53,236 nucleotides of DNA. It comes from a virus. Taxonomy: Duplodnaviria; Caudoviricetes. Within the stretch, counting starts at the first letter, position 1, and each line of letters opens with the position of its first letter. A program made the translations under genes and the position numbers. The notes under the pieces are model-generated. The model made no database searches and was not told where the DNA came from. It saw only the letters and a program-made list of their open reading frames with translations. The DNA lies in the IMG/VR virus record IMGVR_UViG_3300030098_002282, positions 1-53,236 of that record. The stretch is one strand, 5' to 3'. Below, one piece after another: positions 1 to 53,236 of the stretch.

Positions 1-152
1 CCAAATGATTCGTATCATACGGCGATGAAAGAGGCAAAAATGGCTTCTGCTCATAAATACTCTTTATTAGAAGAGAAGAAAATGCTTACACCGAATATGA
101 GCTTTGAAAATGGAAAGTTCTATCACAGTCATAATTCTTTTGATTTTAGATA
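1..152. repeat. Terminal direct repeat, left copy (circular assembly overlap)
   Basis: Matches 53085-53236 except for two substitutions; an ORF reads in frame through the junction. Confidence 0.95.
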
Positions 153-777
153 TGAACTGCCTTATCATTTCTTGATTGGCAGAGTAATGTCTACAATTTC
201 ATCTGCTTTTAAAAATCTTGTGAAATACTCAAGTTATTGTTCAGTTAGTATGCAACAAACCTTCTTTAGTGCTCTATATAATTCTACACCAGATGAATTA
301 GAAAACATAGACTTTGAAGGTAAGTTTAGTAAAGTTAAAGTGAACAAAGAACAACAGTGGTTAGAGATGATGAGAAAGTTAATGGTTATGCGTAAAATAG
401 ATGAATTATCTCATGACACTGGATGGTTTTGGGATGAACTAAACGATTCTAGAGAAAACTTCGAAGAAGGAATTTCACTAAGAGACTTACGAGTTTGCTT
501 TGGTGGAGAAATCCATTTAATGGATGCATCTCAGAGAAGAGAATGGCAAGATATAGCAGTTCGACACTGGTATAAGTTCTTTCCATCATTTCCAAATTCT
601 ATAGAAGAAATAGCTGAGCTACGATTCAAATTAGATAGGGAAATAATAACACACGCTATGTTAAAATTTAAAAAAGACATGGCAAAAGCTAAAAAGGAGT
701 ATGAGAATGTACTTAAGAATACCTTACCGAGTGTGGAACAAGGTGAATTATTTTCTCAAGAGATTTCCGTCAACTGA
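1..777 (+). CDS. 3' part of the E2-domain protein (the track ORF 25-777 is only its C-terminus)
   Basis: 51741-53084 is 448 codons and position 1 is in frame with the ATG at 25; helical, coiled-coil-like C-terminus. Confidence 0.85.
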   Translation, partial: PNDSYHTAMKEAKMASAHKYSLLEEKKMLTPNMSFENGKFYHSHNSFDFRYELPYHFLIGRVMSTISSAFKNLVKYSSYCSVSMQQTFFSALYNSTPDELENIDFEGKFSKVKVNKEQQWLEMMRKLMVMRKIDELSHDTGWFWDELNDSRENFEEGISLRDLRVCFGGEIHLMDASQRREWQDIAVRHWYKFFPSFPNSIEEIAELRFKLDREIITHAMLKFKKDMAKAKKEYENVLKNTLPSVEQGELFSQEISVN

Positions 778-1636
778 ATGGTCTGGACCAGCTTGGTACA
801 AACCAATTATGAAGAAAGGCGAGAAGTATCCTGAGGGATTTAAACTAATTCATTTTCATCCTGTAGACCTTGGACACGGAACAGCAACCACAATAGAGGC
901 AGGAGATACAGCCAAGATTCTTGAAAAGACTTGGAAAGATTATCCTGAAACTGAGAAATGTATGATGGGGATTATTCATTCTCATCATACTATGGGTGCG
1001 TTCTTTAGTGGCACTGATAAAGATTGCTTAAAAGACAATGCACCACAGAAGAACTTTTATTGTTCTACTGTAGTAGCAAGTAAGAAAGAGAAATTTGCAT
1101 TCGGTGTTTCTTACAAGGACCAGTTTGAGAGAGTTCATTTAGATATTGCTGAAGAAGGCAGTACTCAAATGATACTACCACCTGATACAGAAGAAAGTAA
1201 ATGGAAATACATTGCAAAGAAAATAGAGAAAGCAAAGAAAGAAACAACAGTTACAGGTTATTACGGTACTGGGGGGCGATACAATCAGGGAACATTTTGG
1301 GGTCATGGCAGTAGCCAAGCAGTTAATGGATATGGTTATCCAATTAATTACAAAGATGACAACCCTGATGAAAGAACCATTGAATGGTTGCAAAGAAGAG
1401 CAGACATAATGGATGACCCTGAGAGTGCGTATATTGAACTGTTAACTGAGGCATATAGTAAGAATAAGATTCTATATGAAACTTTTTCCGATGAACTCAA
1501 ATTATTGGGAATTGACGCAGTGTCTTACATACATGCTTGGAATGAACCAGAAACTAAAAAAGGAGGTACAAATGTCCTTGCTCTCCCGAAAGCATCTAAG
1601 GAATCAGGACTTGATTCCCCAGACCCTGTTGGATGA
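701..1636 (+). CDS. JAB/MPN+ metalloprotease (deubiquitinase-like)
   Basis: TEWSG catalytic Glu plus IHSHHTMGAFFSGTD = HxHx7SxxD; the ATG at 707 is better spaced from the AAGGAG RBS. Confidence 0.9.
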   Translation: MRMYLRIPYRVWNKVNYFLKRFPSTEWSGPAWYKPIMKKGEKYPEGFKLIHFHPVDLGHGTATTIEAGDTAKILEKTWKDYPETEKCMMGIIHSHHTMGAFFSGTDKDCLKDNAPQKNFYCSTVVASKKEKFAFGVSYKDQFERVHLDIAEEGSTQMILPPDTEESKWKYIAKKIEKAKKETTVTGYYGTGGRYNQGTFWGHGSSQAVNGYGYPINYKDDNPDERTIEWLQRRADIMDDPESAYIELLTEAYSKNKILYETFSDELKLLGIDAVSYIHAWNEPETKKGGTNVLALPKASKESGLDSPDPVG

Positions 1637-9786: not shown

Positions 9787-11715
9787 TTATATAATTTCGT
9801 CCAATTCTTTTTCACCCTCTTTCTGACCTATCAAATGCCAAGCAAGTAAACCTGCTCCCATTGCAACAGGATGTAAAGCTAAGCCGGGTATCCTTTTTCC
9901 TGCAAACTTTAAAAAACTCTTTGGGTTTTCGAGAGCCTTTCGTTTAATATATCTTAAAGATTCCGTACTCATTCCTTTTTTTCTTACATAATGTTTAACA
10001 TCACCTCTTGTAAGTTTCTTTTCTTTCAACTCATTTAATCTATTATCTTGACCATAAAAAGGATTTGCTCGAGTCATATTACGAGTCATTTCTTTACCAC
10101 TTCTACCATCATAAGTTCTAAACTCTTCTTCAACTATAAAAGGAATGTTTCTTTGAAATCCAGAATGTCCACTCATTGGAAGGTCACTTAAATCACTAGT
10201 CACCATTCTTTGTGCTATTTTAGTTGCTCTGCTTCCGGGCTCTATAAAAGGTTTATAATCTACTGTAGCATTAATCCCACCTTCTAAATAACTATTTGTT
10301 ACTCTACCTATCCCACTTAACTGGAATTGACCACGACTACCTGCTCTAAATGCTCCCTGCTTTTTCATTTGATATGCTATTTTACGAGCTTCGTTTTGAG
10401 AGTATTGATTAGACATTTCTTTAAGCAAGAACTGTCCTCTTTCAGACCTTCTAGCATTTATAGACATTCCTTTATATTCATTCATATACTTGTTATATCT
10501 TCGCAAACCTTTAGGTGGTTTATCTGCTTCATTTGACCAGTTTTCACCATATTCTCTCAAGTCTCTCCATTTATATGTAAAAGCACCTCCTAGATTTAAA
10601 TTTTTTAATGCTAATTGAATTTCTTTCATACCAAAGTGTGGATTTTCATATGCTATTTGAGATGCATACCTACCCATCTTTTGAAAGACCCTTGAAGGTC
10701 CTCTTTTAATTCTCATATCATGCTGATGAACATTTCTTATTAAATTAATAGCAGTCTCGTCATTAAGCATCATACCTTTTTTAAGACCTAATCTATTTGT
10801 TAATTTATTAGAGTATTTATTAACATCATTTTCCCATTGTTGACCGCCAATACTTTTCATATAATCTTTAACATCACCCCATCTATATTGACCAGCGTAC
10901 TCATAACCTGCCATTTTCAATCTTTCATTAGACCATCTTCTATTTGCCCACATAGCGTGTGATTCGCTCTTTGCTATTTCGTGTCTCCATTTTCTATCAA
11001 ACTCTCCATATCTTTCGTATTTTCTTTTTGCTTTCTGTTTATCTAGTGTGAGTTGTGCGGTTCTTCTATAATGTTGTTCTTGATTTATCACACCTTGAGA
11101 CCTAGCTTTATCAAGTTGACCTAGTTCTGCATCTATATTGCTTATCCTACCATCAATTCCTAAATTGTTTCTTCTAGCAGTATCTCTTTTTAAAAACCAA
11201 AGTGACTCTTCTGGAGTTACATTCATACCGCCTTTCATATCTTTTTTGTACCATTTATAATAATCCATAGCTGTACGATTCTGACCGTTCTTTTTTAATT
11301 CATATTGAAGGTCCTCAAATTGAGTAGGATTTTTTAAATTTTTATATACTTTATTAGCATCATCCATAGATGAGTTTTGTATCGCCTGTAAAGCACCTTG
11401 GTCAAAACCAAATTGTTGAGCCTTACCTTTTATTGTACCAGTAAGGTTTCTTTTTATACTTGTTGCTTTATTACCAAGTGCTTCCTCTGTCTTAGTCATA
11501 TCTTTTAGAGGGTCTTGGTCATAGTAACCAGCACTAAAGTTTCTCATATTCATACCAGCCCAAGCCATTGCTGGCTTAGGTAAGGTCATTATACTTGAGC
11601 CAATTACTGCACCTAATGCACTGTTGCCCATTGCATCATCAGGGTCATCTGTTGCAACATAAGAAGCACCTCCCCCTATTAAAGCCCCCAGCATTCCGTG
11701 AGTACCGTATAGCAT
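9787..11715 (-). CDS. Putative internal virion/ejection protein
   Basis: Last late gene, coupled to the vRNAP gene; Gly-rich hydrophobic termini and a basic core. Confidence 0.5.
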   Translation of the reverse strand: MLYGTHGMLGALIGGGASYVATDDPDDAMGNSALGAVIGSSIMTLPKPAMAWAGMNMRNFSAGYYDQDPLKDMTKTEEALGNKATSIKRNLTGTIKGKAQQFGFDQGALQAIQNSSMDDANKVYKNLKNPTQFEDLQYELKKNGQNRTAMDYYKWYKKDMKGGMNVTPEESLWFLKRDTARRNNLGIDGRISNIDAELGQLDKARSQGVINQEQHYRRTAQLTLDKQKAKRKYERYGEFDRKWRHEIAKSESHAMWANRRWSNERLKMAGYEYAGQYRWGDVKDYMKSIGGQQWENDVNKYSNKLTNRLGLKKGMMLNDETAINLIRNVHQHDMRIKRGPSRVFQKMGRYASQIAYENPHFGMKEIQLALKNLNLGGAFTYKWRDLREYGENWSNEADKPPKGLRRYNKYMNEYKGMSINARRSERGQFLLKEMSNQYSQNEARKIAYQMKKQGAFRAGSRGQFQLSGIGRVTNSYLEGGINATVDYKPFIEPGSRATKIAQRMVTSDLSDLPMSGHSGFQRNIPFIVEEEFRTYDGRSGKEMTRNMTRANPFYGQDNRLNELKEKKLTRGDVKHYVRKKGMSTESLRYIKRKALENPKSFLKFAGKRIPGLALHPVAMGAGLLAWHLIGQKEGEKELDEII

Positions 11716-22704: not shown

Positions 22705-22935
22705 CTACCTCAAATTAAATGTAGATGAATCTGACCTAATCCATCCATCTTTGTGTTTAAACTCAACATAATGTTTACCATCTTCTTTAATAACTCTATA
22801 AGTATTTAACTGAGCTTCAGAGTTTTTAGCAGATGAAGACTCCCTGTCTCCTTTGATAGACTGCTCTAACTTATTAACTCTTTCATCTAAATCTTCAAGT
22901 TCCATTTTTATTGTAGGGTCGTCTACTCTACTCAT
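22705..22935 (-). CDS. Small virion-associated hypothetical protein
   Basis: Coupled to the nozzle gene. Confidence 0.6.
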   Translation of the reverse strand: MSRVDDPTIKMELEDLDERVNKLEQSIKGDRESSSAKNSEAQLNTYRVIKEDGKHYVEFKHKDGWIRSDSSTFNLR

Positions 22936-25900
22936 ACTTTACTACTCCTCGCTTTAATAGGTCTTAAGTGAACTCCTATAGACTCTAAAGTCCTTTGTCC
23001 ATTATCATCCACAACCTGTACCTGTAGAGACTTAGACTTTCTATCACTCGAAGATACCCGATTAGAAGTTAATGTTTGGAAAGAACTATTACTAGCATTT
23101 TTATACTTAGTTACAAGACCTGAACTACCCTCAGTATGAATCTCAGAAAAAGACTTATCGTAAGTATCAAAACCAGCAGTGATTTTCTTTGATTGAAACT
23201 CCCAAGCTTTTCTAGTAGAACTAGTCCCTATTTGCATTAATTTTCCGTCTGATGCAATTATCTCTCCAAACTTACCTTGAGTAATAGACTTTACTTTATT
23301 AACAAAAGTCCAGAAGTCCCACCTTCTGGTCATCACACTATATACCCAAGCGTATGATGAATTGCTAACTTCAAATATTACCATTAAGGCTTTTCTTTCT
23401 CCATCAAATGCTAACATAGGTGGAGAGGTTTCAAGAGATGTGCTTATACTATCCCAAGTAAAGTTTGTTAAATCTGTATTGTCTGAGCTATATATAGGGG
23501 TGCTAATTATCTTAGAAGCTTTGCCATTGTGTAAATAAACTCCGTACTTATCTGCAAAAAACATTCCATAATCGGTTGCTATTATACTTTTTTGACTCAA
23601 TGCACCAGCACCTTCCATTTTGTCTATAATTGATAAGTTATTAGGGTTTATTGCATAGATATTTGACTCTGTAAAAGCATACAATATATTATTATACGAC
23701 TTTAATGCAGTAGGCTTGTCTTGTAATGCACAATATTCATTAGCCCAATTAAAGACACTAAACTTACCTGCTTTGCTTCTAAATATATAGTTGCCAACAT
23801 TAGTTATTTCTGGATTATTAGCATCTCCAACAAATAAATACCCAGCACATTGTTCTGATATTTTATATGACAACCAATTCGTCGTCATAGCTGGTGATAT
23901 ACCAGTTAAAGCTTCGTAAGAACCAAAGTTTTTTCCTTTTTGGTCTTTTACAACATATTCTACATAGCCATTACTACCACTAGACCAACCACTATTATCT
24001 AGAGACACAGATTCAACTAGTTGATAATCTAAATCAGGTTCAGTGGCACTTCCATCAAAAGCCTTACCTCTATATATATTTATATGAGACAACCTCGGTG
24101 ATACCTTATCAGGTAAGAGTCCAATAGTTATCTTATGACCATGTTTAAATGGATTGTTACTAGCATTAGAATACAAAGTTTCACCTAAACAACTTTCTTG
24201 ATACCCATCATAAAGCATAGATATCCTATAGAAGTTTTTATAGTAATGTGAGTTATCATCTTTATCAGTACCATCAGGTAATAAATTAGAGTTATCTTTC
24301 TCACCTGCTCCGTCAGCAATAGCAACAGTAATAGAACTTAATACATCTATCTTACTCCAACTAGCAGTTTCAGCAACATCCCCTACATCATCAAGGTAAA
24401 AGCAACTAAATGATAGACTTGTTGTTACTGCTATCCAATCAAAATCTGAAGCTGTATCGTTATAATTAAGTGTCTGAGATGGTCCTTTCCAATCGTTTAT
24501 ATTCTCACTAGGTGTATACTTTTTCCTTGATATAGAAGAGTTTAAAAAGACCCGTCCATCTAAATCATTTTGATTTAATTTGCTATTATTTAAAGTTAAT
24601 AAATCATAGAATATCACAGAGTCTTTTTCTGTACATACTATTCCCCTTGGCTGAAGTATTGTTGTATTAGGCATAAATGAATTAATACTTGACAAGCCAG
24701 TATATTGCCCACCATCACCGTACCACTGCATACTTAGTTCTTCACTTCCGTATGAACCTGAGATTGATACATCTATCTTAGTGTCAATATCAACACTTGA
24801 ATTGTTTAATGCAATTCTTTTTATACCTGCATATGAAGTACTGCTTTCAGGTTGCCAAGATTCGCTATCAGTGTAAACTTCGATATGGGCACCTAATGCA
24901 GTTGTCTTGGTATCTTGTTTTATAAATGGTCCTATTTGTTTATATCTATAAATCACGCCTTGACCATCACTATTACTAGAAGGGCTCTCAGTGTCATATG
25001 TATGCGAATAATCTTCATTTTCAAAAGTATTAAAAACCCAAGGTATAGCTACAGCAACTGTTTCAGAGCCTGATTTATTACTATATAAAAATAATCCTTT
25101 TGGATGTATTGCCTTCTTCAGTCTCCAATCTGGAGTATTACTTCCGTAAATCTCTTGCTGACTGTAACCTTCACCACCAGTTCCTTGACCGGGGTCTGAG
25201 GTGTTTTCATACCACCATTCATCGTGTAAATATCTAAACCAATAAGCATCTACTTCAGCGTTATTACTATTATCACTTGTTTGAAATGGTCCAGTTATAT
25301 TAGTAAACTCAATAGCAGTGTAACCAATATCTGGGAGACTACCGGGTGCACTTGTTATGTCAGTGCTTCTCCATAAATACTCTGTTTTATGATTACCTAT
25401 ACCAAATGATTTCTCTTCCCAAGAAGCGTCACTATCATAATAATTTGATGAAGAAGCTAGGACATAAACGAAACCATCAAGTACTAATACATCACTAAGC
25501 TTTACAGTATCATTCATAAATGGCGTAGCTAAAGTAGAACCTGAAGCACTTGTTAATTTATAGCTTCTATTACCACTCAAAGACATAGCTGTTCCACTAG
25601 CACCTATTGTATATTTTTTTAAATGATAGTCAGATACATTGTCATATAATACCCAAATATCAGTATTTGTTTCGTGGTCAAGATATATACCACAAATTGT
25701 TCCACCAACATTTAGACTGCTTTCTACTCCATCTGAACGATTGGCTTTTAATAACCAAGAACTTCCTTTAACATACCCAACTATTAATTGAGATGAGGAA
25801 GTTAAATCTATATTAGCATCTTCTGCATCATCACTACTAGGTGCAGGAAGACAAAACTCCTCAAAGGCAGGCAAAACTGATGTACTAACAGATATAGCAC

Positions 25901-26858
25901 CATTAGTTAATAGAAAAGTTTCACCCATATCTCTACCAAATTGTTTCACATTTGGATACCCCATATATAATGGTTCATTTTGTGGACCTATCCCTGCAAA
26001 AGTATCATCCCCTCTAGTAGCAAATGTAGGTTCATTTTTTACTGCATTTTGATAAGGTAAATAAGTTTGACTCGAAGGATAACTTTTAGCTTCTGCTTTT
26101 ACAGAATACACATCTTCAAGCATAGAAAATGCTTCTTGAGACTTGTCCCATCCTAATATATTATGTGCTCCATTTTTATTTATTCTAGTCATTTTATCAG
26201 CACTGTACTCTCGTATAGGAAATCCAGTAAAATTCCAATGTATATAACTACCTGCTTGCATAGCAGTATTTTGGTCTATTCCAGAAAAATAAAACTCTAA
26301 GCCATGCATATATGCTTTACCACTACCAAATTTTTCATTACTAGCATCGTGGCTTAGGACACTCGTGCTTCCATCATGAAGTTGGCAAACATAAGAACAA
26401 TAAGCGTCTACTTTAGCAGTACCTGATATAGCAGAATTATGAATACCTGCGGTTCCTGACCCATTATCTATTGTAAATTTCTTAACTGAATCACCCTCAG
26501 TTCCTGTAGTTATAGCGGTTACTCTACCTATGAATCCATTATTATTACTTGTTACGGAATTACTAGCTCCAGTTGCACCATCACCGCCATTTGAAGAGTA
26601 GATATAATCACCAACCCATATAGGCACACCTTCAGTTGAATCACTAAAAGTACCATCTCCTTCATCTTTTCTAAGTGTCACGGTTGAAGACCCACCTTGA
26701 AATTGAAGAAAGTATTGAGCGTCCCAATTCTTTATAATTACACCAAAAGTCTCATTAGTACCTGTTGCTGTAACTCGAACTTGGTAATCTATTTTTCTAG
26801 AACCTGTATATGTACCAGATAATTTTAAGTTGGCAGGATTAAAATTAGACTTAGGCAT
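22932..26858 (-). CDS. Tail nozzle/stabilisation protein (tail tubular B or P22 gp10-like)
   Basis: Beta-rich; C-terminal propeller-like motifs (YIFRSK, LYAFTESNIY, MFFADKYGVY, WEFQSKKI); position before the ejection genes. Confidence 0.6.
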   Translation of the reverse strand: MPKSNFNPANLKLSGTYTGSRKIDYQVRVTATGTNETFGVIIKNWDAQYFLQFQGGSSTVTLRKDEGDGTFSDSTEGVPIWVGDYIYSSNGGDGATGASNSVTSNNNGFIGRVTAITTGTEGDSVKKFTIDNGSGTAGIHNSAISGTAKVDAYCSYVCQLHDGSTSVLSHDASNEKFGSGKAYMHGLEFYFSGIDQNTAMQAGSYIHWNFTGFPIREYSADKMTRINKNGAHNILGWDKSQEAFSMLEDVYSVKAEAKSYPSSQTYLPYQNAVKNEPTFATRGDDTFAGIGPQNEPLYMGYPNVKQFGRDMGETFLLTNGAISVSTSVLPAFEEFCLPAPSSDDAEDANIDLTSSSQLIVGYVKGSSWLLKANRSDGVESSLNVGGTICGIYLDHETNTDIWVLYDNVSDYHLKKYTIGASGTAMSLSGNRSYKLTSASGSTLATPFMNDTVKLSDVLVLDGFVYVLASSSNYYDSDASWEEKSFGIGNHKTEYLWRSTDITSAPGSLPDIGYTAIEFTNITGPFQTSDNSNNAEVDAYWFRYLHDEWWYENTSDPGQGTGGEGYSQQEIYGSNTPDWRLKKAIHPKGLFLYSNKSGSETVAVAIPWVFNTFENEDYSHTYDTESPSSNSDGQGVIYRYKQIGPFIKQDTKTTALGAHIEVYTDSESWQPESSTSYAGIKRIALNNSSVDIDTKIDVSISGSYGSEELSMQWYGDGGQYTGLSSINSFMPNTTILQPRGIVCTEKDSVIFYDLLTLNNSKLNQNDLDGRVFLNSSISRKKYTPSENINDWKGPSQTLNYNDTASDFDWIAVTTSLSFSCFYLDDVGDVAETASWSKIDVLSSITVAIADGAGEKDNSNLLPDGTDKDDNSHYYKNFYRISMLYDGYQESCLGETLYSNASNNPFKHGHKITIGLLPDKVSPRLSHINIYRGKAFDGSATEPDLDYQLVESVSLDNSGWSSGSNGYVEYVVKDQKGKNFGSYEALTGISPAMTTNWLSYKISEQCAGYLFVGDANNPEITNVGNYIFRSKAGKFSVFNWANEYCALQDKPTALKSYNNILYAFTESNIYAINPNNLSIIDKMEGAGALSQKSIIATDYGMFFADKYGVYLHNGKASKIISTPIYSSDNTDLTNFTWDSISTSLETSPPMLAFDGERKALMVIFEVSNSSYAWVYSVMTRRWDFWTFVNKVKSITQGKFGEIIASDGKLMQIGTSSTRKAWEFQSKKITAGFDTYDKSFSEIHTEGSSGLVTKYKNASNSSFQTLTSNRVSSSDRKSKSLQVQVVDDNGQRTLESIGVHLRPIKARSSKV

Positions 26859-29931: not shown

Positions 29932-32900
29932 TTATTCAAATACGAAGGTTACTAAAAATTGGTCTACTGCTGTGCTATTTGGGTCGATACTGAATCGCAA
30001 TGCATTCCCTTTTGCTATAGACAACCCAGAAGCAATATTCACTGTAGACCCTGATGTAAAGTTTTTTACATATGAGGTAGTAGTAGTAGCTGAACCAGCA
30101 ACAAATACACTATATGTAGTAGCTACTTCCACTTTAAATGTGCAACCAGTGACAGCAGTCTCACTTGTGACATATAAAGCTCTTAATGTAGTTGGGAATG
30201 GAGCGACCCAAGTCATTTGGGTTTTTAAATCTGAAGTAGTGGCTACGCTTGCACTAGCTACACCACCCACAGCAAACGGCATATTCTTCTCAGTAGAAGT
30301 TCCTTTCCAATCCGAAGAAGCATTTATCATAAATGGATAAGCACCGTCAACTGATAAAGCACCTTCCACCTTTAAATCTTCTTTTATTGTTATATCACAA
30401 TCTTGGTCAATAACAAATGCTGTAGTACCACCTGCATCCCCAAGTTTTAACTTATCAGAATCAGAGCCATCGTTATACAACTGCCAAGCCATTGTATCTT
30501 CTTGGTCCCATTGCAGTATAGCATCATAATTATTATCTGCATTTGACTGTATTTTTAAATATGTGTGGTCAGTTTTAACTCTACCATCTACTACAACATC
30601 ACCTGTAAATGTAGCTAATCCATTGCCTTTAATAGTATGAAGAGTAGTTCCCTCTTGATTATCAACCATAAAAGCATTGTAGTTATTACTGTTAGGAGCA
30701 CCTTTAATAAAAAATCCGTGTCCAGTTGTACTACTATTATGAACACCACCACCATATTGCCCTGCCAAAGACCCTTCGACATCTAAAATTCTTATAGGAG
30801 TTTTTCCTATCCCAATGTGACCAATAGAATTAATCGTTAACCTTTTTGCACAATCCCCACCAAATGCCTTTGTCCAAAAGGTCATTTCTGAGCCTTGTTC
30901 TCCACCTGTAGAAGAACCCTGTACATTTGAAACCTGAATCCTAGCTACACCTTCACCACTTCCACCCCAGTAATTAACTCCACTAGCATAGTAGTTATGT
31001 TCATTTCTCCATAGAATATTTCCAATAGCAACATCAGAACCATTGGTGTTTCCAACTAACTCTATAGTTCCTGCTGTATTTGAAGCTGATGACCCAATTT
31101 CTAAAACATTGCTAATACCTACACCATACGCAGTACCTAAAGGTTCTCTACCAATACCAACATCTCCTGCGGCTGAAACGGTCAATATATGGTTAGCTCC
31201 ATAATGTCCTATAGTAACTAGGTTTGCATCAGCACCTGAAGATGAAAATTTATAGCCTATATATCCACTATTTTTTGATGATTCAGCTTGTCCAAATAAA
31301 TGTATATTGGTTTCACCTGAAGCCAAATTCGGACTCATTGAAGATGACATCCAATTAAAAGTATCACTAGCAGAACCTTGTATTCGTAAAATTTCAGTTC
31401 CATCACCACCAGTACCTCGCAAATCCAAAATAGCTGTAGGTGACTGAGTTCCAATTCCTAGTGAACCTCCATCAAGAAAAGAGTCACCACCTGCATGGAT
31501 TCTCACCTTATGTGCAGGGGTGCTATCATTCATATCTATAACTGCATTACTGCCACTTGTCGATAAAACTGTCTTACCTGCATCTGAATTAGCTGTAATG
31601 TTGTCATCAGTTACTATATCACCTGTGAAAGTAGCTTTTTGATTCGCATCCAATGTAAGGGCAGTAGTTGATGCTGTTGTAAATATAAAAGAATTAGGAC
31701 CAGTGCCATCGTTTACATGATGATATTTTATTGAACCTACTGAAGTCGCACCTTCTCTTGAAAAAACTAGAGTACCCGACTTGTTTGCAGGAGTCCATAT
31801 TGATAATCCAGAATCACCACTTCCTTCAATAATCAATTCATCAGCACTAGTATTGGCGGCACTTGTAATACCTGAATCGCCTGTAAAAATGTGAAGTTTT
31901 GCAAGGGGGGTGTCTTCGCCCAATCCCAGATTTCCTCCAGTAAGATAAGAGTTTCCATCAGTAGATAAGCGTACTCGTGTAGTCCCGTTTTGATCTTTCA
32001 TATAATACCAAGCACTACCACTAGAATCATTGTAAAGCAAGAATATATCTTGGTCTGATGAATTAGATATAACTAAAGGAGATGTCGAAGTTCCAGAAGC
32101 TTTTATTTCAAGTCTATAAGCAGGGCTTGGCGTTCCAATACCTAAATTTTGACTAGCATTAATTGTTAAGGCATCTGAACCATTACCACTTCGTAAAGTT
32201 AATATACCATCTGAATGTTGAGTACCAAGCTTCATAGTCTTGGTGTTGTACTCGTAAAAAACATTTGCACCATTCAAATCACTTGTAGAACCAAATACAA
32301 TAGTTGATGTATGACCTGACGATTCCCCTGCCAATATAGATAATCCTGCATCTGCATTATTTCTAATAACTAACTCATCGCCATCACTATCAGGAGTTCC
32401 ACTAACTGTTCCATTGCCACCTACGATGTCTATTTTACCTGCTGGTGACGAATTATTGATCCCTAAATTTCCTCCATTTAAATAAGAATCACCTTCAGTG
32501 TCAAAATTAACTTTTGCAGAACCATCGCTATCAGTTATATACATAGCACCATCGCCACCAACTGTGTTAAAAGTCACTTGAGAACTTCCACCTAAAGTAA
32601 ATCTAACTTCACCATTTACACTTAAAGCGTGACTAGGAGTTGAGGTTCCAATACCGACTTTGCCCTCAACAATAGATAATCTTTTTGTGCTTGAATCATT
32701 TACTCTTGTACTTAAAAATAAAGAACCATCTTCCGTTCCATTAGTCACATCTGCTGATTCTGCGTGAATACCTGCATATCCAGTTGAATTTCCAGCATCA
32801 TCATCACCAAGCCAAGTTATGTGACCCAGCTCATCTCCGTCTGCTGGACTTGCTGAATTTTTATTAAATTTAAGACCGGGTGCATTTACATCTGCGTTAG

Positions 32901-34161
32901 TATTCTCAATTATTACATATGGGTGTTCTGACCCTGCGGATTTTAAATGTAGCATTGATGAAGGACTCGTAGTACCAATCCCGACATTTCCACTAGCGTC
33001 TATGTACATTCTTGTATTATGAGTAGAACCATCAGCAGTTGTTTGAAATGCTATTGTCCCTTCAGAAGAAGTACCACCTCTTGAAATCAGATTGGTAGTA
33101 CCTTGATTCATATTTAATTGTGCATATTGGTCTAGGGCATTTTGAGAATCACCAGCCCTTGAAATCTTAATGCCATCTCCAGCATTATTTGCTCCTATTA
33201 TAAATAGATTTGCACTTGTAGCTGTACCTGATGACTCAACTCCAATCATCATTTTACCATTACGAAATGAGTAAATACCTGCATCAATGTAAAACTGCAT
33301 TCCATTGGCATTGTTATAACTGTTGAAGTATCCCCATCCATTGTCATCATAGCAACCAGTTAAAACATAATTATCACCAGAGCCGTGTATCTTTAATCTT
33401 TTGTTCACTCCTTCAGCCGTTAATGGTGTACCACCCTGTATTAAGGCTCTTCCTTCGTCATCTATAGTAAGACCTGTATATAGTTGATAAGCACTACCAT
33501 TATGACCTTTTGTAATGAGACTTAAATTTGTGGCATAAGCACCATCATCTCCTGCTGTGCATTTGACATATGCAGTAGCACCATCGCTTCGTCTATCAAA
33601 TGTTAGTGAAACATCATTCCCTTCTGCCCCAGTATCTTTGTGAATAATAATTCCAGTATTGACTCGTAAGCTAGTACTAGTATCGTTCCCTGCTGTTCCT
33701 ACCTGAAGACCATTTGTATCTATTTTTGCTTTGTATACGCCCCCAACTTCCCATTCGCAATATTTATTTGCAGGAACATTAAGTCTTATATTGTCTGCAC
33801 TTGTACCTCTTATGTATACACCATCATTTCCTGTGCCTACATTGTTTAAATATACAAATCCATCATCTTTTGAGACTGTTATATTTCCATAAAAATTAGC
33901 ACTTTGGTCACTACTAAGGTTTAATGCTGTATCGCTACTTGACCCTGTATAAAAGTTTATATGTTCGTTGTCTGAAATTATTAAACGAACACCACCTGAA
34001 CCTTTTAAGTCTATCTGACCATCTGTAAACGCAAGGTAAGTTCCTGTATCGTCATTGTGATATAACTTATTTGGAATACCTAAATTACCAGTAAGCGTAC
34101 CACCAGAAGTAGACAAACTGTCATCATCACCTGCTAATAATACTCTTTTCCAAGTAGCCAT
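29932..34161 (-). CDS. Long tail fibre / receptor-binding protein
   Basis: G/S/T/N-rich; about 8 G-x-[VLI]-G-[IL]-G-x(2-3)-P repeats. Confidence 0.8.
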   Translation of the reverse strand: MATWKRVLLAGDDDSLSTSGGTLTGNLGIPNKLYHNDDTGTYLAFTDGQIDLKGSGGVRLIISDNEHINFYTGSSSDTALNLSSDQSANFYGNITVSKDDGFVYLNNVGTGNDGVYIRGTSADNIRLNVPANKYCEWEVGGVYKAKIDTNGLQVGTAGNDTSTSLRVNTGIIIHKDTGAEGNDVSLTFDRRSDGATAYVKCTAGDDGAYATNLSLITKGHNGSAYQLYTGLTIDDEGRALIQGGTPLTAEGVNKRLKIHGSGDNYVLTGCYDDNGWGYFNSYNNANGMQFYIDAGIYSFRNGKMMIGVESSGTATSANLFIIGANNAGDGIKISRAGDSQNALDQYAQLNMNQGTTNLISRGGTSSEGTIAFQTTADGSTHNTRMYIDASGNVGIGTTSPSSMLHLKSAGSEHPYVIIENTNADVNAPGLKFNKNSASPADGDELGHITWLGDDDAGNSTGYAGIHAESADVTNGTEDGSLFLSTRVNDSSTKRLSIVEGKVGIGTSTPSHALSVNGEVRFTLGGSSQVTFNTVGGDGAMYITDSDGSAKVNFDTEGDSYLNGGNLGINNSSPAGKIDIVGGNGTVSGTPDSDGDELVIRNNADAGLSILAGESSGHTSTIVFGSTSDLNGANVFYEYNTKTMKLGTQHSDGILTLRSGNGSDALTINASQNLGIGTPSPAYRLEIKASGTSTSPLVISNSSDQDIFLLYNDSSGSAWYYMKDQNGTTRVRLSTDGNSYLTGGNLGLGEDTPLAKLHIFTGDSGITSAANTSADELIIEGSGDSGLSIWTPANKSGTLVFSREGATSVGSIKYHHVNDGTGPNSFIFTTASTTALTLDANQKATFTGDIVTDDNITANSDAGKTVLSTSGSNAVIDMNDSTPAHKVRIHAGGDSFLDGGSLGIGTQSPTAILDLRGTGGDGTEILRIQGSASDTFNWMSSSMSPNLASGETNIHLFGQAESSKNSGYIGYKFSSSGADANLVTIGHYGANHILTVSAAGDVGIGREPLGTAYGVGISNVLEIGSSASNTAGTIELVGNTNGSDVAIGNILWRNEHNYYASGVNYWGGSGEGVARIQVSNVQGSSTGGEQGSEMTFWTKAFGGDCAKRLTINSIGHIGIGKTPIRILDVEGSLAGQYGGGVHNSSTTGHGFFIKGAPNSNNYNAFMVDNQEGTTLHTIKGNGLATFTGDVVVDGRVKTDHTYLKIQSNADNNYDAILQWDQEDTMAWQLYNDGSDSDKLKLGDAGGTTAFVIDQDCDITIKEDLKVEGALSVDGAYPFMINASSDWKGTSTEKNMPFAVGGVASASVATTSDLKTQMTWVAPFPTTLRALYVTSETAVTGCTFKVEVATTYSVFVAGSATTTTSYVKNFTSGSTVNIASGLSIAKGNALRFSIDPNSTAVDQFLVTFVFE

Positions 34162-50891: not shown

Positions 50892-51107
50892 ATGGAAACA
50901 TTACTTATGATTCCATTAACTGTAACTTTAATTATTGTTGCACTTATGCTAACAATAGTCTTTCTTGTTTTTAAACTTACTTATCTACGAGATAGGATGA
51001 GATGGTGGAGAAGAGAGGCTATGAAATTAAATGGTAAGGTAGAAAAAGATAATAATAACTATTTAAAGAATAAAGCGAGGGCATGGTGGCTACGGAACCA
51101 AAGTTAG
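50892..51107 (+). CDS. Small membrane protein
   Basis: AAGGAGG RBS; N-terminal TM helix. Confidence 0.7.
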   Translation: METLLMIPLTVTLIIVALMLTIVFLVFKLTYLRDRMRWWRREAMKLNGKVEKDNNNYLKNKARAWWLRNQS

Positions 51108-51400
51108 AAGGTAAAGGTGAAAACTATGAAGTTAGACAAATTTCATGGTTTAAAACAAAAAAGGTCACTATTAGTGGCGAAAGAAGAGAAGTTCCTATAT
51201 TATGGGAAAAGAGACTGATTGGTATTTATCCAACATACGATGAATCGTTATTTATCTTGAGAAGGACTCAGGGTAATTACAGGAAGGAATGCGGAAAGCA
51301 AGGAATAAAACCAATTGCTCGATTTACCATTAGGAAGACGGGCTTAAAGCCCACAACCAGTAGCGTAGGAAACTACCTACAAAGCACAGGAGGTCATTGA
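51083..51400 (+). CDS. Hypothetical basic protein, coupled to the Ubl gene
   Basis: GAGG RBS; its TGA overlaps the Ubl ATG. Confidence 0.65.
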   Translation: MVATEPKLEGKGENYEVRQISWFKTKKVTISGERREVPILWEKRLIGIYPTYDESLFILRRTQGNYRKECGKQGIKPIARFTIRKTGLKPTTSSVGNYLQSTGGH

Positions 51401-51654
51401 TGGCTGAAGTACGCTATATGGCATACCACACAGGTGGTGTTCCTAAGACTGTAGATGCGTCTACCCCTGCTGAGATTGCTGAAAAAGAAGGATTTGGCAT
51501 TGACGATTCGCAAGTTGCGATTTATGTCGGTGGGAAATCTGCGACAGCTAATACTCGTCTTAAAGACGGGCAAGTTGTTTCTTTTCAGAAAGCTAGGCAA
51601 GAGTCTGGGAATGATAAGGTAAAAACTTATCTTGTCAAAATCCGAAGAGGTTAA
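51400..51654 (+). CDS. Ubiquitin-like (beta-grasp, ThiS/MoaD-type) protein, 84 aa
   Basis: AGGAGG RBS before the ATG at 51400; VAIYVGG...TRLKDGQVVSF matches the ThiS/MoaD pattern VAVNG...L.DGD.V.h; ...QESG70 followed by a 14-aa tail ending RRG; directly upstream of E2/JAB/E1. Confidence 0.8.
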   Translation: MAEVRYMAYHTGGVPKTVDASTPAEIAEKEGFGIDDSQVAIYVGGKSATANTRLKDGQVVSFQKARQESGNDKVKTYLVKIRRG

Positions 51655-51740: not shown

Positions 51741-53236
51741 ATGTTCCAATACAATCCAAAAGAATATGAAAGAATAACAGACCCAGAATATATAATAAAA
51801 TGTACCTACTATAATGAAGAACATAAGGTAACAATGAAGAGATTTATAGTAGAAGCTTTCAAAGAAACAAATAAAGACTTTCCGTTTGAAGATTTCTTAA
51901 ATGAATATGAGTTTCTATATGATGACATAAGAGAGCAAGTCTTACTTATTATTAGAGGAGCTAGACTTAGGCTTCGTAAATATTTTCATTTACCACCTAT
52001 TTATATAGCTTTCCCTATGACTGATGCTATGTCTCTTAATTGGGAACCTCAAATGTCTAGGTACTTACAAAAAATGGCTCCAATAGGTTTTCTTAACGAA
52101 GAAAGCAAGGAAGATGCTTATAAGCTATCTGAACATCCTTTCTCAGTATTATATCATCCACATATTGACTCAATGGGCTTTGCCTGTTATGGTAATTGGG
52201 GTGAAATCATACTAGAATGCACTGGTGCTTATCAAATAATAGAGAACTTAAGAGGATTTGTAAATGACTATAATGGTAGAAGTACTTTCTATACTGTAAA
52301 TCCCTATGCTTTTGATAGGAAAGAAAATATCAATACCTATTATGACCATTTTCAATTTCCTCAGCGTATAAATTCATTTGTTGCTTGTGGTTATCCTAGA
52401 ATTTGGCAATCTTGGTCTTCAATTATAGAAGGTGTCTTCGGAAATAATTGGATACTAGAAATGTGTGAAGAATTATCTCTTAATTATGAAACAATGAATT
52501 GGATACATAATTATATCACATATATAGATAAAAATGGTGCTAGCACAAACGACTACTATTCAATATTTGATGATTTTGTTAAAAATGGTGGAATAGAAGG
52601 AGTAGAGTATTATCAATATCCCGGTGACCATAAAGATAGTGAAGGAGAACGAATAAGGTATAACGAAGATGAATGGGAAATAGAAATGAAGAAATATAAG
52701 AAATACGAAGAAGTAAAGAATACTCACACTCCACAGTCTTTTAGTAACTATGTAGGTTTATGGCTACAGAGTAAAATTGGTTACAATTTTTCTAAAGGTG
52801 ATTTATCTGCTATAAAGCATGGATTAAAAAGTTGGGTATCAATAAATCTAGAGCGTGATGTAAGATACACAGAAAAGTATACTAAATGGAAAAGTAAAGA
52901 CCCTCAAGGATTCAGAATACATGGTATGCTGGAAACTATGGGAACTAGAACATTAGATTCAGATGGACCTAATTTTCTAAGCTCGGACTATGCTTCTCTG
53001 GTTTTTCTTTTAGCTAGTAATAGTAATATAGACCAGATTTTGAAAACTCTTTTCAATTTTGAAGATAAAGCAAGAGATTCATTACCAAATGATTCGTATC
53101 ATACGGCGATGAAAGAGGCAAAAATGGCTTCTGCTCATAAATACTCTCTATTAGAAGAAAAGAAAATGCTTACACCGAATATGAGCTTTGAAAATGGAAA
53201 GTTCTATCACAGTCATAATTCTTTTGATTTTAGATA
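51741..53236 (+). CDS. E2/UBC-like conjugating enzyme with a large C-terminal extension, 5' part (continues through the junction into 1-777; 706 aa total)
   Basis: AAGGAGG RBS; no stop codon found by manual translation; LYHPHIDSMGFAC149YGNW aligns with the canonical E2 motif IYHPNINSNGSICLD, with Cys 8 residues after the third HPx residue. Confidence 0.8.
   Translation, partial: MFQYNPKEYERITDPEYIIKCTYYNEEHKVTMKRFIVEAFKETNKDFPFEDFLNEYEFLYDDIREQVLLIIRGARLRLRKYFHLPPIYIAFPMTDAMSLNWEPQMSRYLQKMAPIGFLNEESKEDAYKLSEHPFSVLYHPHIDSMGFACYGNWGEIILECTGAYQIIENLRGFVNDYNGRSTFYTVNPYAFDRKENINTYYDHFQFPQRINSFVACGYPRIWQSWSSIIEGVFGNNWILEMCEELSLNYETMNWIHNYITYIDKNGASTNDYYSIFDDFVKNGGIEGVEYYQYPGDHKDSEGERIRYNEDEWEIEMKKYKKYEEVKNTHTPQSFSNYVGLWLQSKIGYNFSKGDLSAIKHGLKSWVSINLERDVRYTEKYTKWKSKDPQGFRIHGMLETMGTRTLDSDGPNFLSSDYASLVFLLASNSNIDQILKTLFNFEDKARDSLPNDSYHTAMKEAKMASAHKYSLLEEKKMLTPNMSFENGKFYHSHNSFDFR
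53085..53236. repeat. Terminal direct repeat, right copy
   Basis: CCAAATGATTCG...TTTTAGATA, same as 1-152. Confidence 0.95.

Follow-up and report, generated by a model that had tools for sequence, protein, structure and literature searches.

The stretch of DNA examined here, called the window throughout, comprises all 53,236 nucleotides (nt) of IMG/VR record IMGVR_UViG_3300030098_002282, a virus of the Caudoviricetes (Duplodnaviria). At its centre, biologically speaking, is a gene that the record splits between its two ends and that encodes a protein of 706 amino acids (aa), with an E2-like head followed by a helical extension of about 500 residues. This gene stands in an operon with genes for a ubiquitin-like protein (Ubl), a JAB peptidase and a small E1, so that an uncultured phage lineage is seen to carry a whole Ubl conjugation kit beside its replication genes. 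On the evidence of sequence and modelling, the putative E2 has a rare architecture, in which a catalytic head, a large and fast-diversifying body and a tail resembling clamp-binding peptides are combined in one chain. The extension had been singled out in an earlier examination of the letters alone (the sequence-only reading) as a candidate built-in substrate selector that might serve as E3/adaptor or be itself the modified substrate, and that might vary with the host.

A conserved operon across the ends of the record

The window amounts to a phage genome of about 53.1 kb with ends that overlap by 152 nt, and this end repeat indicates that the record is circular or terminally redundant; in IMG/VR it is listed as linear, at a completeness that CheckV puts at 99%. 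The two copies of the repeat mismatch at two sites, 64 and 75 (versus 53148 and 53159), both silent within the 706-aa gene and consistent with population variants merged during metagenome assembly. Joined at the overlap, 51741-53084 and 1-777 read as a single uninterrupted frame, with 706 codons before the stop. A database protein of the same length (P0001), encoded on a single 50,615-nt contig, differs from that of the window at four residues (314, 374, 377 and 435), all of them in the extension, and the homologous gene is intact in five of the seven viral loci fetched with a motif pattern. Because P0001 lies on one contig and homologues are unbroken in independent loci, the junction is not an accident of assembly, and the join assumed in the sequence-only reading holds. 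At one locus (L016:8274-9365) the homologue appears as two open reading frames (ORFs), one of 116 aa and an open one of 234 aa; this copy runs into the end of its contig and is perhaps interrupted.

On the plus strand, the genes run in the order 105-aa protein, Ubl, 706-aa protein, JAB, E1, Sak4, 208-aa protein and primase-helicase. Related viral loci were obtained with a back-translated motif pattern (seven loci) and with the Ubl protein (13 loci); protein-alignment searches of viral or metagenome contigs returned no related loci, nor did a Ubl search of bacterial genomes. In each of the 13 viral contigs fetched with the Ubl, a homologue of the 706-aa protein is the next gene. JAB and E1 come next in all 12 of these loci that are long enough, followed by Sak4 in the 11 that reach that far and by the 208-aa protein and primase-helicase in the longer ones. 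Packing is tight, with overlaps of 77 nt between the genes for the E2-like protein and JAB and of 32 nt between those for E1 and Sak4.

The E2-like protein thus has its expected partners by gene context, namely a ThiF-type E1, a Prok-JAB peptidase and a small protein whose conserved part closes with ...QESG. That small protein, the Ubl, consists of a nearly fixed core of 70 residues running to QESG and a tail, 1 to 14 residues long, that varies from phage to phage, which is the pattern of a precursor needing trimming by a peptidase. It is the most conserved small gene, at 83-93% identity to the window in the seven loci that carry the full operon and 72-99% between phages; its Pfam match is a weak one to the beta-grasp family TGS (E 0.057). 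In the JAB protein, the H-x-H-x7-S-x2-D stretch is invariant in 7/7 aligned sequences; beyond the conserved catalytic half lie a Gly/Tyr-rich linker and then some 120 variable residues at the C-terminus. The likely E1 start (Table 1) is the one at which homologues begin with an aligned MSLLSRK, and these homologues are 247-258 aa long with a single ThiF match, retaining GxGxxG and three invariant cysteines. The conserved E1 end, ...AYANTNSYSYN, is encoded within the overlap with Sak4, which starts at 2308.

When the seven proteins of the operon region were compared with PADLOC-DB v2.0.0, the sole matches were of the E1 to "E1-E2" models, and these were weak (best E 1.6e-4). Six-frame searches of the genome with the Pfam models HECT and zf-RING_2 gave nothing at E <= 1, in agreement with the earlier impression that no RING or HECT gene is present. 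Upstream of the Ubl, the 105-aa protein (51083-51400, plus strand), which belongs to no known family, is found in 10 of the 13 Ubl loci at 33-64% identity, and in several of them its end overlaps the Ubl start.

Head, body and tail of the 706-residue protein

The family of the 706-aa protein is small, with 22 representatives among 1.84 billion proteins: 14 of 586-712 aa, 7 shorter pieces and 1 with a sister architecture. In the head, the stretch HPHID-x5-C has the same spacing as HPNID-x5-C of UBE2L3, placing the Cys eight residues after an HPN-type triad, and H[PS]H[IV]D-x5-C is found in all 31 distinct family sequences that span the region. A four-sequence HMMER profile searched against the PDB gave nine matches, every one UBE2L3-type (E 0.4-0.49), with YHPHIDSMGFAC aligned to HPNIDEKGQVC. 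Nearly invariant positions are H139, H141, D143, C149, G151, W153, D176, Y177, N178, S181, F183 and D192. One look-alike cluster in the Atlas carries Prok-E2_D on 39% of its members, and the predicted fold of the head bears a weak E2 likeness. Given the motif, the operon context and this weak but recurrent likeness of fold, the head is very probably a diverged E2. A Pfam scan of all 22 members returned scattered chance-level matches only, such as TetR_C_34 in three of them (best E 0.079).

By hhalign, seven proteins of 376-470 aa that form a sister family (P0025-P0031) share the core of the head (probability 96%, E 3.8e-9 over 63 columns). The best two of the four PDB matches of that family are E2s (E 0.31), and 2/7 of its members weakly match Pfam UQ_con at E 0.042. 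The HPH...C...NYN core of this family lies close to the C-terminus and is preceded by an N-terminal region that is unrelated, which makes this a second unusual E2 architecture.

A model of the whole protein, built from 22 sequences and assigned secondary structure by DSSP, has a mean predicted local distance difference test (pLDDT) score of 86.6 and a predicted template modelling (pTM) score of 0.79. Beyond the linker it comprises helices from 219 to 473, the three-stranded sheet 481-496, further helices from 497 to 689 and a low-confidence tail (692-706). Since the extension in the window spans the junction, that of a homologue, L010 (overall identity 34%), was modelled by itself in its place, and it shows the same helical layout at pLDDT 82.7. 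Phe, Trp and Tyr make up 14.0% of residues 207-706, and within the C-terminal block (631-691) P, F, P, K, E and V columns are nearly invariant.

Most of what had been read from the letters about the shape of this protein is borne out by the model. The domain boundary placed at about residue 190 is nearly right, with the linker at 196-207 and conservation falling past residue 200, and the extension is aromatic-rich and helical as described, confidently so, and without a convincing relative. The terminal coiled coil is instead a single 41-residue helix (649-689) leading into a disordered tail, and an extension said to have no recognisable motif in fact closes with a conserved one, Q-x-[D/E]-L-[F/L], which 31 of 35 distinct sequences contain.

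Searches for the ancestry of the extension were uninformative. The Atlas held no look-alike of residues 207-706; Foldseek found the extension no convincing relative (best E 0.17-0.37); and the best match of the whole model in BFVD by Foldseek was an unnamed viral protein of 474 aa (E 4.3e-3, template modelling scores 0.19/0.24). Neither internal repeats in the extension nor a paralogue in the window were found. A DNA-binding role for a subdomain of the extension was considered and set aside, the subdomain being acidic (isoelectric point 4.3) and its fold scores within the range of common helical arrangements. Cys242 was likewise rejected as a second catalytic cysteine; it is probably structural, since Ala or Val replaces it in two of the 19 aligned sequences that cover the position.

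Rates of evolution separate the parts of the protein. In the seven full-operon loci, the 706-aa protein is 27-34% identical to that of the window overall, the head 40-47%, the extension 19-27% and the last 27 residues 48-70%, so that the comparison of E2 domain and extension finds the latter less conserved; the corresponding values are 55-67% for JAB, 67-78% for E1, 82-87% for Sak4 and 76-87% for the primase-helicase. Across eight genomes, all 28 pairs place the 706-aa protein last in conservation among five operon proteins (mean identities: Ubl 82, 706-aa protein 31, JAB 61, E1 72 and Sak4 83%). Among 16 full-length sequences, pairwise identity averages 0.43 over residues 1-195, 0.19 over 207-630 and 0.52 over 676-700, and blocks of the C-terminal region have identities of 0.30, 0.23 and 0.52. 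For the close pair L015/L017, the 706-aa gene has a non-synonymous rate (dN) of 0.091 and a ratio to the synonymous rate (dN/dS) of 0.25, with 0.14 in the head and 0.28 in the extension, versus dN of 0-0.014 and dN/dS of 0-0.07 in six neighbouring genes. For the near-identical pair L017/L018, three of the six changes in seven genes are non-synonymous and lie in the extension, where there is no synonymous change. Such rates are what a specificity module caught up in conflict would look like.

The tail has a pattern of its own. Its motif lies within the last 30 residues of the sequences that have it, and the sequences without it are three truncated pieces and P0022; several family members terminate right after ELFS. 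The JAB gene, read in a different frame, overlaps the stretch that codes for the tail. There the Gln codon takes its first base from a JAB wobble position, which is C in 9/9 sequences although the JAB residue varies (N, T, S, L), while the wobble base of a four-fold degenerate JAB codon (Val/Leu) that forms the first base of the Glu/Asp codon is G in 9/9. Invariant bases at these two sites point to selection on the E2 frame. Among 32,179 residues in all window frames of at least 50 aa, the motif occurs once. Both in the window protein (residues 692-706) and in the last 15 residues of the homologue, tail pLDDT is below 50.

QGELF fits the bacterial clamp-binding consensus QL[S/D]LF at its Gln, acid, Leu and Phe positions; in the available text of PMC3716654, which gives that consensus, the Gln occupies subsite 2 against the clamp's C-terminal region and the Leu-Phe pair enters hydrophobic subsite 1. 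A complex of two copies of Escherichia coli DnaN with residues 667-706 was predicted using the family alignment. It scored 0.70, 0.69 and 0.70 in three runs, the best of three controls scoring 0.01; the mark used for this score is reached by 116/157 solved complexes and 2/215 mismatched pairs. Contacts agree between runs to at least 71%, and partner pLDDT is at least 59. The predicted interface involves only residues 692-699 (SVEQGELF) of the tail and, on the clamp, residues 172, 174-177, 242, 247, 275, 278, 280, 320, 346, 360 and 362-366, which as a set we take to be the canonical peptide pocket. Gly-174 and Pro-363 are named there as peptide contacts (PMC3716654). Modelling and motif together make it reasonably probable that the tail is a true clamp-binding motif, and likely that it adds a second function that the sequence-only reading did not foresee, a tether to the sliding clamp of the host.

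Table 1. Positions, in window numbering, of the parts of the 706-aa protein, its conjugation partners and other features
Feature	Position	Strand	Remarks
706-aa protein, codons 1-448	51741..53084	+	ORF open to window end; full-length homologues
706-aa protein, codons 449-706 and stop (775-777)	1..777	+	5'-open ORF; join checked
E2-like domain, residues 1-195	51741..52325	+	
Active-site stretch YHPHIDSMGFAC, residues 138-149	52152..52187	+	candidate catalytic Cys149 at 52185-52187
Low-confidence linker, residues 196-207	52326..52361	+	pLDDT < 50
Hypervariable helical body, first part, residues 207-448	52359..53084	+	helices, pLDDT about 90
Hypervariable helical body, second part, residues 449-630	1..546	+	includes three-stranded sheet 481-496
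More conserved C-terminal block, residues 631-691	547..729	+	FP-x-FP motif; last helix 649-689
Disordered conserved tail, residues 692-706	730..774	+	QGELF = residues 695-699, at 739-753
Ubl precursor	51400..51654	+	conserved core to QESG, then a 14-residue variable tail in the window
JAB/MPN metallopeptidase	701..1636	+	Pfam Prok-JAB E 4.9e-6; other frame over last 77 nt of E2-like gene
Small ThiF-type E1, about 255 aa	1572..2339	+	likely start 1572, longest ORF 1476; ThiF E 2.2e-10
Terminal overlap	53085..53236	.	second copy of window 1-152; 152-nt direct repeat
ORFs of 3037, 1409, 1308 and 642 aa	11715-20828, 29932-34161, 22932-26858, 9787-11715	-	

Phage setting and proposed working of the enzyme

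The genome around the operon, of 36% GC content, is that of a phage by its PHROG profiles, which include the large terminase, portal, major head protein, endolysins, tail-fibre-like proteins and primase-helicase as well as a Sak4-like annealing protein and a Gam-like protein. Neither a DNA polymerase of the Pfam A or B type nor a beta-clamp gene was found in it, and on this basis the phage is expected to rely on the host replisome. It is remote from cultured phages: the 706-aa protein had no tblastn match among 50,697 deposited phage records, and matches of the primase-helicase and terminase to deposited phages all fall below 30% protein identity, with no cultured relative above that level. 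The genome contains no tRNA genes, and promoter-like sites are at chance level (19 found, 18.7 expected). About a third of it is taken up by four very large ORFs of 3037, 1409, 1308 and 642 aa without a Pfam match, of which only the 1409-aa ORF matches a PHROG (tail fibre, E 2.5e-7).

On balance, we favour a reading in which the 706-aa protein would be a phage E2/E3-like hybrid stationed on the host clamp, with its variable body picking the targets. By analogy with what these families do, the JAB peptidase would trim the variable tail of the Ubl and expose the conserved ...QESG end, the small ThiF-type E1 would adenylate the exposed glycine, and the Ubl would pass to Cys149 of the head and be attached to a target lysine with no separate E3 taking part. 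The head (residues 1-195) would work with the conserved Ubl and E1, the helical body (207-691) would most likely select the target, which is what would make the protein an E2/E3-like hybrid, and the tail, as modelled, would most likely seat itself in the peptide pocket of the host's beta sliding clamp, a position that would put the enzyme on clamp-loaded, replicating DNA.

Confidence in the separate parts of this scheme is uneven. The analysis itself establishes the gene structure, synteny, motifs, rates of evolution and predicted fold; catalysis, the choice of targets by the body and binding to the clamp are inferred from these. The idea of a specificity part that differs among phages agrees well with the data, since the extension is the least conserved part of the least conserved protein and has the highest dN/dS, and no E3 was found; the selector role is suggested by these results, and we put the chance that the body selects targets at about even. 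More tentative, and rather less probable, is the full picture of a phage Ubl ligase acting from the host beta clamp and tagging either the clamp itself or proteins that the body recognises on clamp-loaded DNA. If that picture is true, the targets of such a clamp-based ligase could be host polymerases, factors for repair or regulation, or defence proteins bound to DNA. It would then amount to take-over of the replisome by a phage with no polymerase of its own and to a counterpart, in the bacterial world, of PCNA-coupled ligation of ubiquitin and SUMO.

Several results weigh against the E2/E3-like hybrid, beginning with the identity of the head, for which no family threshold is passed. The 706-aa protein has no Pfam, PHROG or PADLOC family match; the Pfam E2 models (UQ_con, Prok-E2_A to E) match 0 of the 22 family members at E <= 1; and six-frame genome searches with UQ_con (PF00179) and Prok-E2_D (PF14460) were empty at E <= 10. 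A profile of all 22 sequences found no PDB chain at E <= 10, Foldseek of the whole model against the PDB has no E2 among the matches listed (best E 0.37), and the third residue of the HPN triad is His rather than Asn. For the Ubl, the best PDB sequence matches of the profile are to the C-terminal half of ribosomal protein uL24 (E 0.0055, 48 residues). As to the body, dN/dS in the extension (0.28) is below 1, so that the rates are accounted for equally well by relaxed constraint and by an arms race, and dS is raised in the 706-aa gene (0.36-0.43 versus 0.03-0.22), to which gene exchange by recombination may contribute. With regard to the tail, the second motif position is G, S or T where the consensus has Leu; the clamp modelled is a stand-in from E. 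coli and may not be that of the host; and since many clamp-peptide complexes have been solved, the score may show likeness of motif only.

Conservation of the tail can also be envisioned as the mark of a different contact, one in which the tail and the C-terminal block bind the E1, JAB or Ubl of the phage itself, the body is a scaffold and the resemblance to clamp peptides is coincidental. We consider this unlikely, though by no means far-fetched. These three partners are themselves well conserved in the seven full-operon loci (Ubl 83-93%, E1 67-78% and JAB 55-67%), so that a tail binding them would be conserved too, and the 77-nt gene overlap with JAB suggests coupled translation; for the bacterial Bil system, the available text reports that E1 and E2 stay in solution only when complexed with the Ubl (10.1101/2023.09.26.559546). 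Such docking would leave to chance both the placing of the tail in one defined patch of the clamp (0.70 versus 0.01 for controls) and the match of its invariant residues to the Gln, acid, Leu and Phe/Leu of the clamp consensus. Nor would a scaffold for conserved partners be expected to evolve fastest, as this protein does in 28/28 pairs.

The clamp tether might, alternatively, suffice by itself to direct conjugation to the clamp or its occupants, leaving the body as a weakly constrained spacer or a regulatory domain. The same low dN/dS and raised dS would suit a spacer, as would a lack of any conserved surface motif found in residues 207-630 (mean pairwise identity 0.19) and of any fold relative that hints at a binding function. 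Even so, this account seems to us improbable, slightly more so than docking on phage partners. A confident fold is shared at 19-27% identity and full-length members keep to 660-712 aa, which argues that the body is functional rather than decaying, and the body of the near-identical pair L017/L018 has taken three non-synonymous changes and no synonymous one.

Self-modification, with the extension as the main substrate serving as a timer or as a Ubl-carrying platform, which the sequence-only reading had also raised, would make use of the 41 lysines that the extension holds on the same polypeptide as the active site, but only one nearly invariant lysine column is listed in the extension, within the C-terminal block, and rapid divergence of a self-substrate would have no obvious reason, so that we give this very little credence. 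It is equally hard to credit that the operon performs no protein conjugation at all, the Ubl and E1 being a sulfur carrier pair of the ThiS/MoaD type or part of another adenylation pathway and the 706-aa protein not a working E2: the E1 does amount to a minimal ThiF-type domain (about 250 aa), E2 family models all fail to match and the Ubl fold is putative, but the invariant HPH-x7-Cys stretch is spaced as in E2s, a removable tail follows a conserved Gly in the Ubl, the JAB catalytic residues are intact, the gene order is that of Bil, and the phage has a lytic-type replication module with no sulfur or cofactor genes.

Relation to known conjugation and clamp-binding systems

In the accessible parts of the literature, the complete bacterial Ubl conjugation systems described so far (Bil, CBASS type II and Bub) are anti-phage defenses, phages have been credited only with a Ubl and a JAB peptidase in tail assembly, and the available text of an Asgard-virus preprint reports viral E1-like genes only. 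Our literature search found no complete phage-encoded Ubl conjugation operon and no work linking Ubl conjugation to the bacterial clamp, although subscription journals and supplements may hold more on both. If the hybrid reading is true, the operon would be a case of a bacterial virus using Ubl conjugation as a weapon or a tool of take-over. It would also provide a natural E3-free E2 with a specificity module that can be compared across many diverged variants, and a connection, open to test, of Ubl conjugation with the bacterial sliding clamp.

The closest relative in organization is Bil. As given in the available text, BilABCD has the order Ubl-E2-DUB-E1, its deubiquitinase (DUB) must remove a C-terminal extension of the Ubl, and no E3 is described; its authors propose that a divergent portion of the E2 chooses the target (10.1101/2023.09.26.559546). 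Roles of BilA-D are described as well in 10.1101/2023.09.04.556158. The phage operon shares with Bil (types I and II), insofar as those accounts cover it, the same four parts in the same order, the trimmed Ubl tail and the lack of an E3. It differs in standing in a phage beside replication genes, whereas Bil is a bacterial anti-phage system. The enzymes differ too: the Bil E2 has a Cys and a downstream His (C138/H151), whereas the phage protein has HPH before its Cys and no conserved His after it; the Bil E1, as described, has IAD, AAD and CYS parts with catalytic Cys 417 and elements at 490-504, whereas the phage E1 has about 250 aa and one ThiF domain; and only the phage E2 carries a 500-aa body and a clamp-binding-like tail.

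A second point of comparison is operon class 6d of Iyer, Burroughs and Aravind (2006), for which the available text of PMC1779556 lists Ubl, JAB, E1 and E2 together with a separate, rapidly diverging alpha-helical protein that has absolutely conserved charged residues, the E2 of this class being without the classical His. Both systems, on that description, set a fast-diverging alpha-helical component alongside Ubl, JAB, E1 and E2. By the same description they are distinct, since in the phage the helical part is fused to the E2 and the His of the HP-triad is kept. It is possible that class 6d is the unfused counterpart of the phage protein. Similarly, CBASS type II Cap2 and Cap3 deploy E1, E2 and JAB chemistry in phage-bacterium conflict, but Cap2, as described in the sources available, is a bacterial protein fusing E1 and E2, and what it conjugates is a CD-NTase, not a free Ubl.

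Eukaryotes offer precedents for the working principle. The E2/E3 hybrids UBE2O and BIRC6 hold a UBC core within a large polypeptide that recognises substrates, with no separate E3; likeness to them is one of principle only, as the phage extension has no sequence or fold relation to them that we found. Clamp-dependent ligation is likewise familiar from Rad6-Rad18 and Ubc9 acting on PCNA and from CRL4-Cdt2 with its PIP degrons, systems in which a short clamp-binding peptide brings a ligase to the clamp and modification then occurs at replicating DNA. Unlike the PIP box of those systems, the phage motif is of the bacterial QL[S/D]LF type, belongs to a viral system and sits on the E2 itself. Among phages, MuC of phage Mu is, in the available text of PMC12867686, a protein with a clamp-binding motif that enlists the host clamp, as the tail described here would do; MuC is a transcription factor, whereas the protein in the window appears to be an enzyme of a conjugation pathway.

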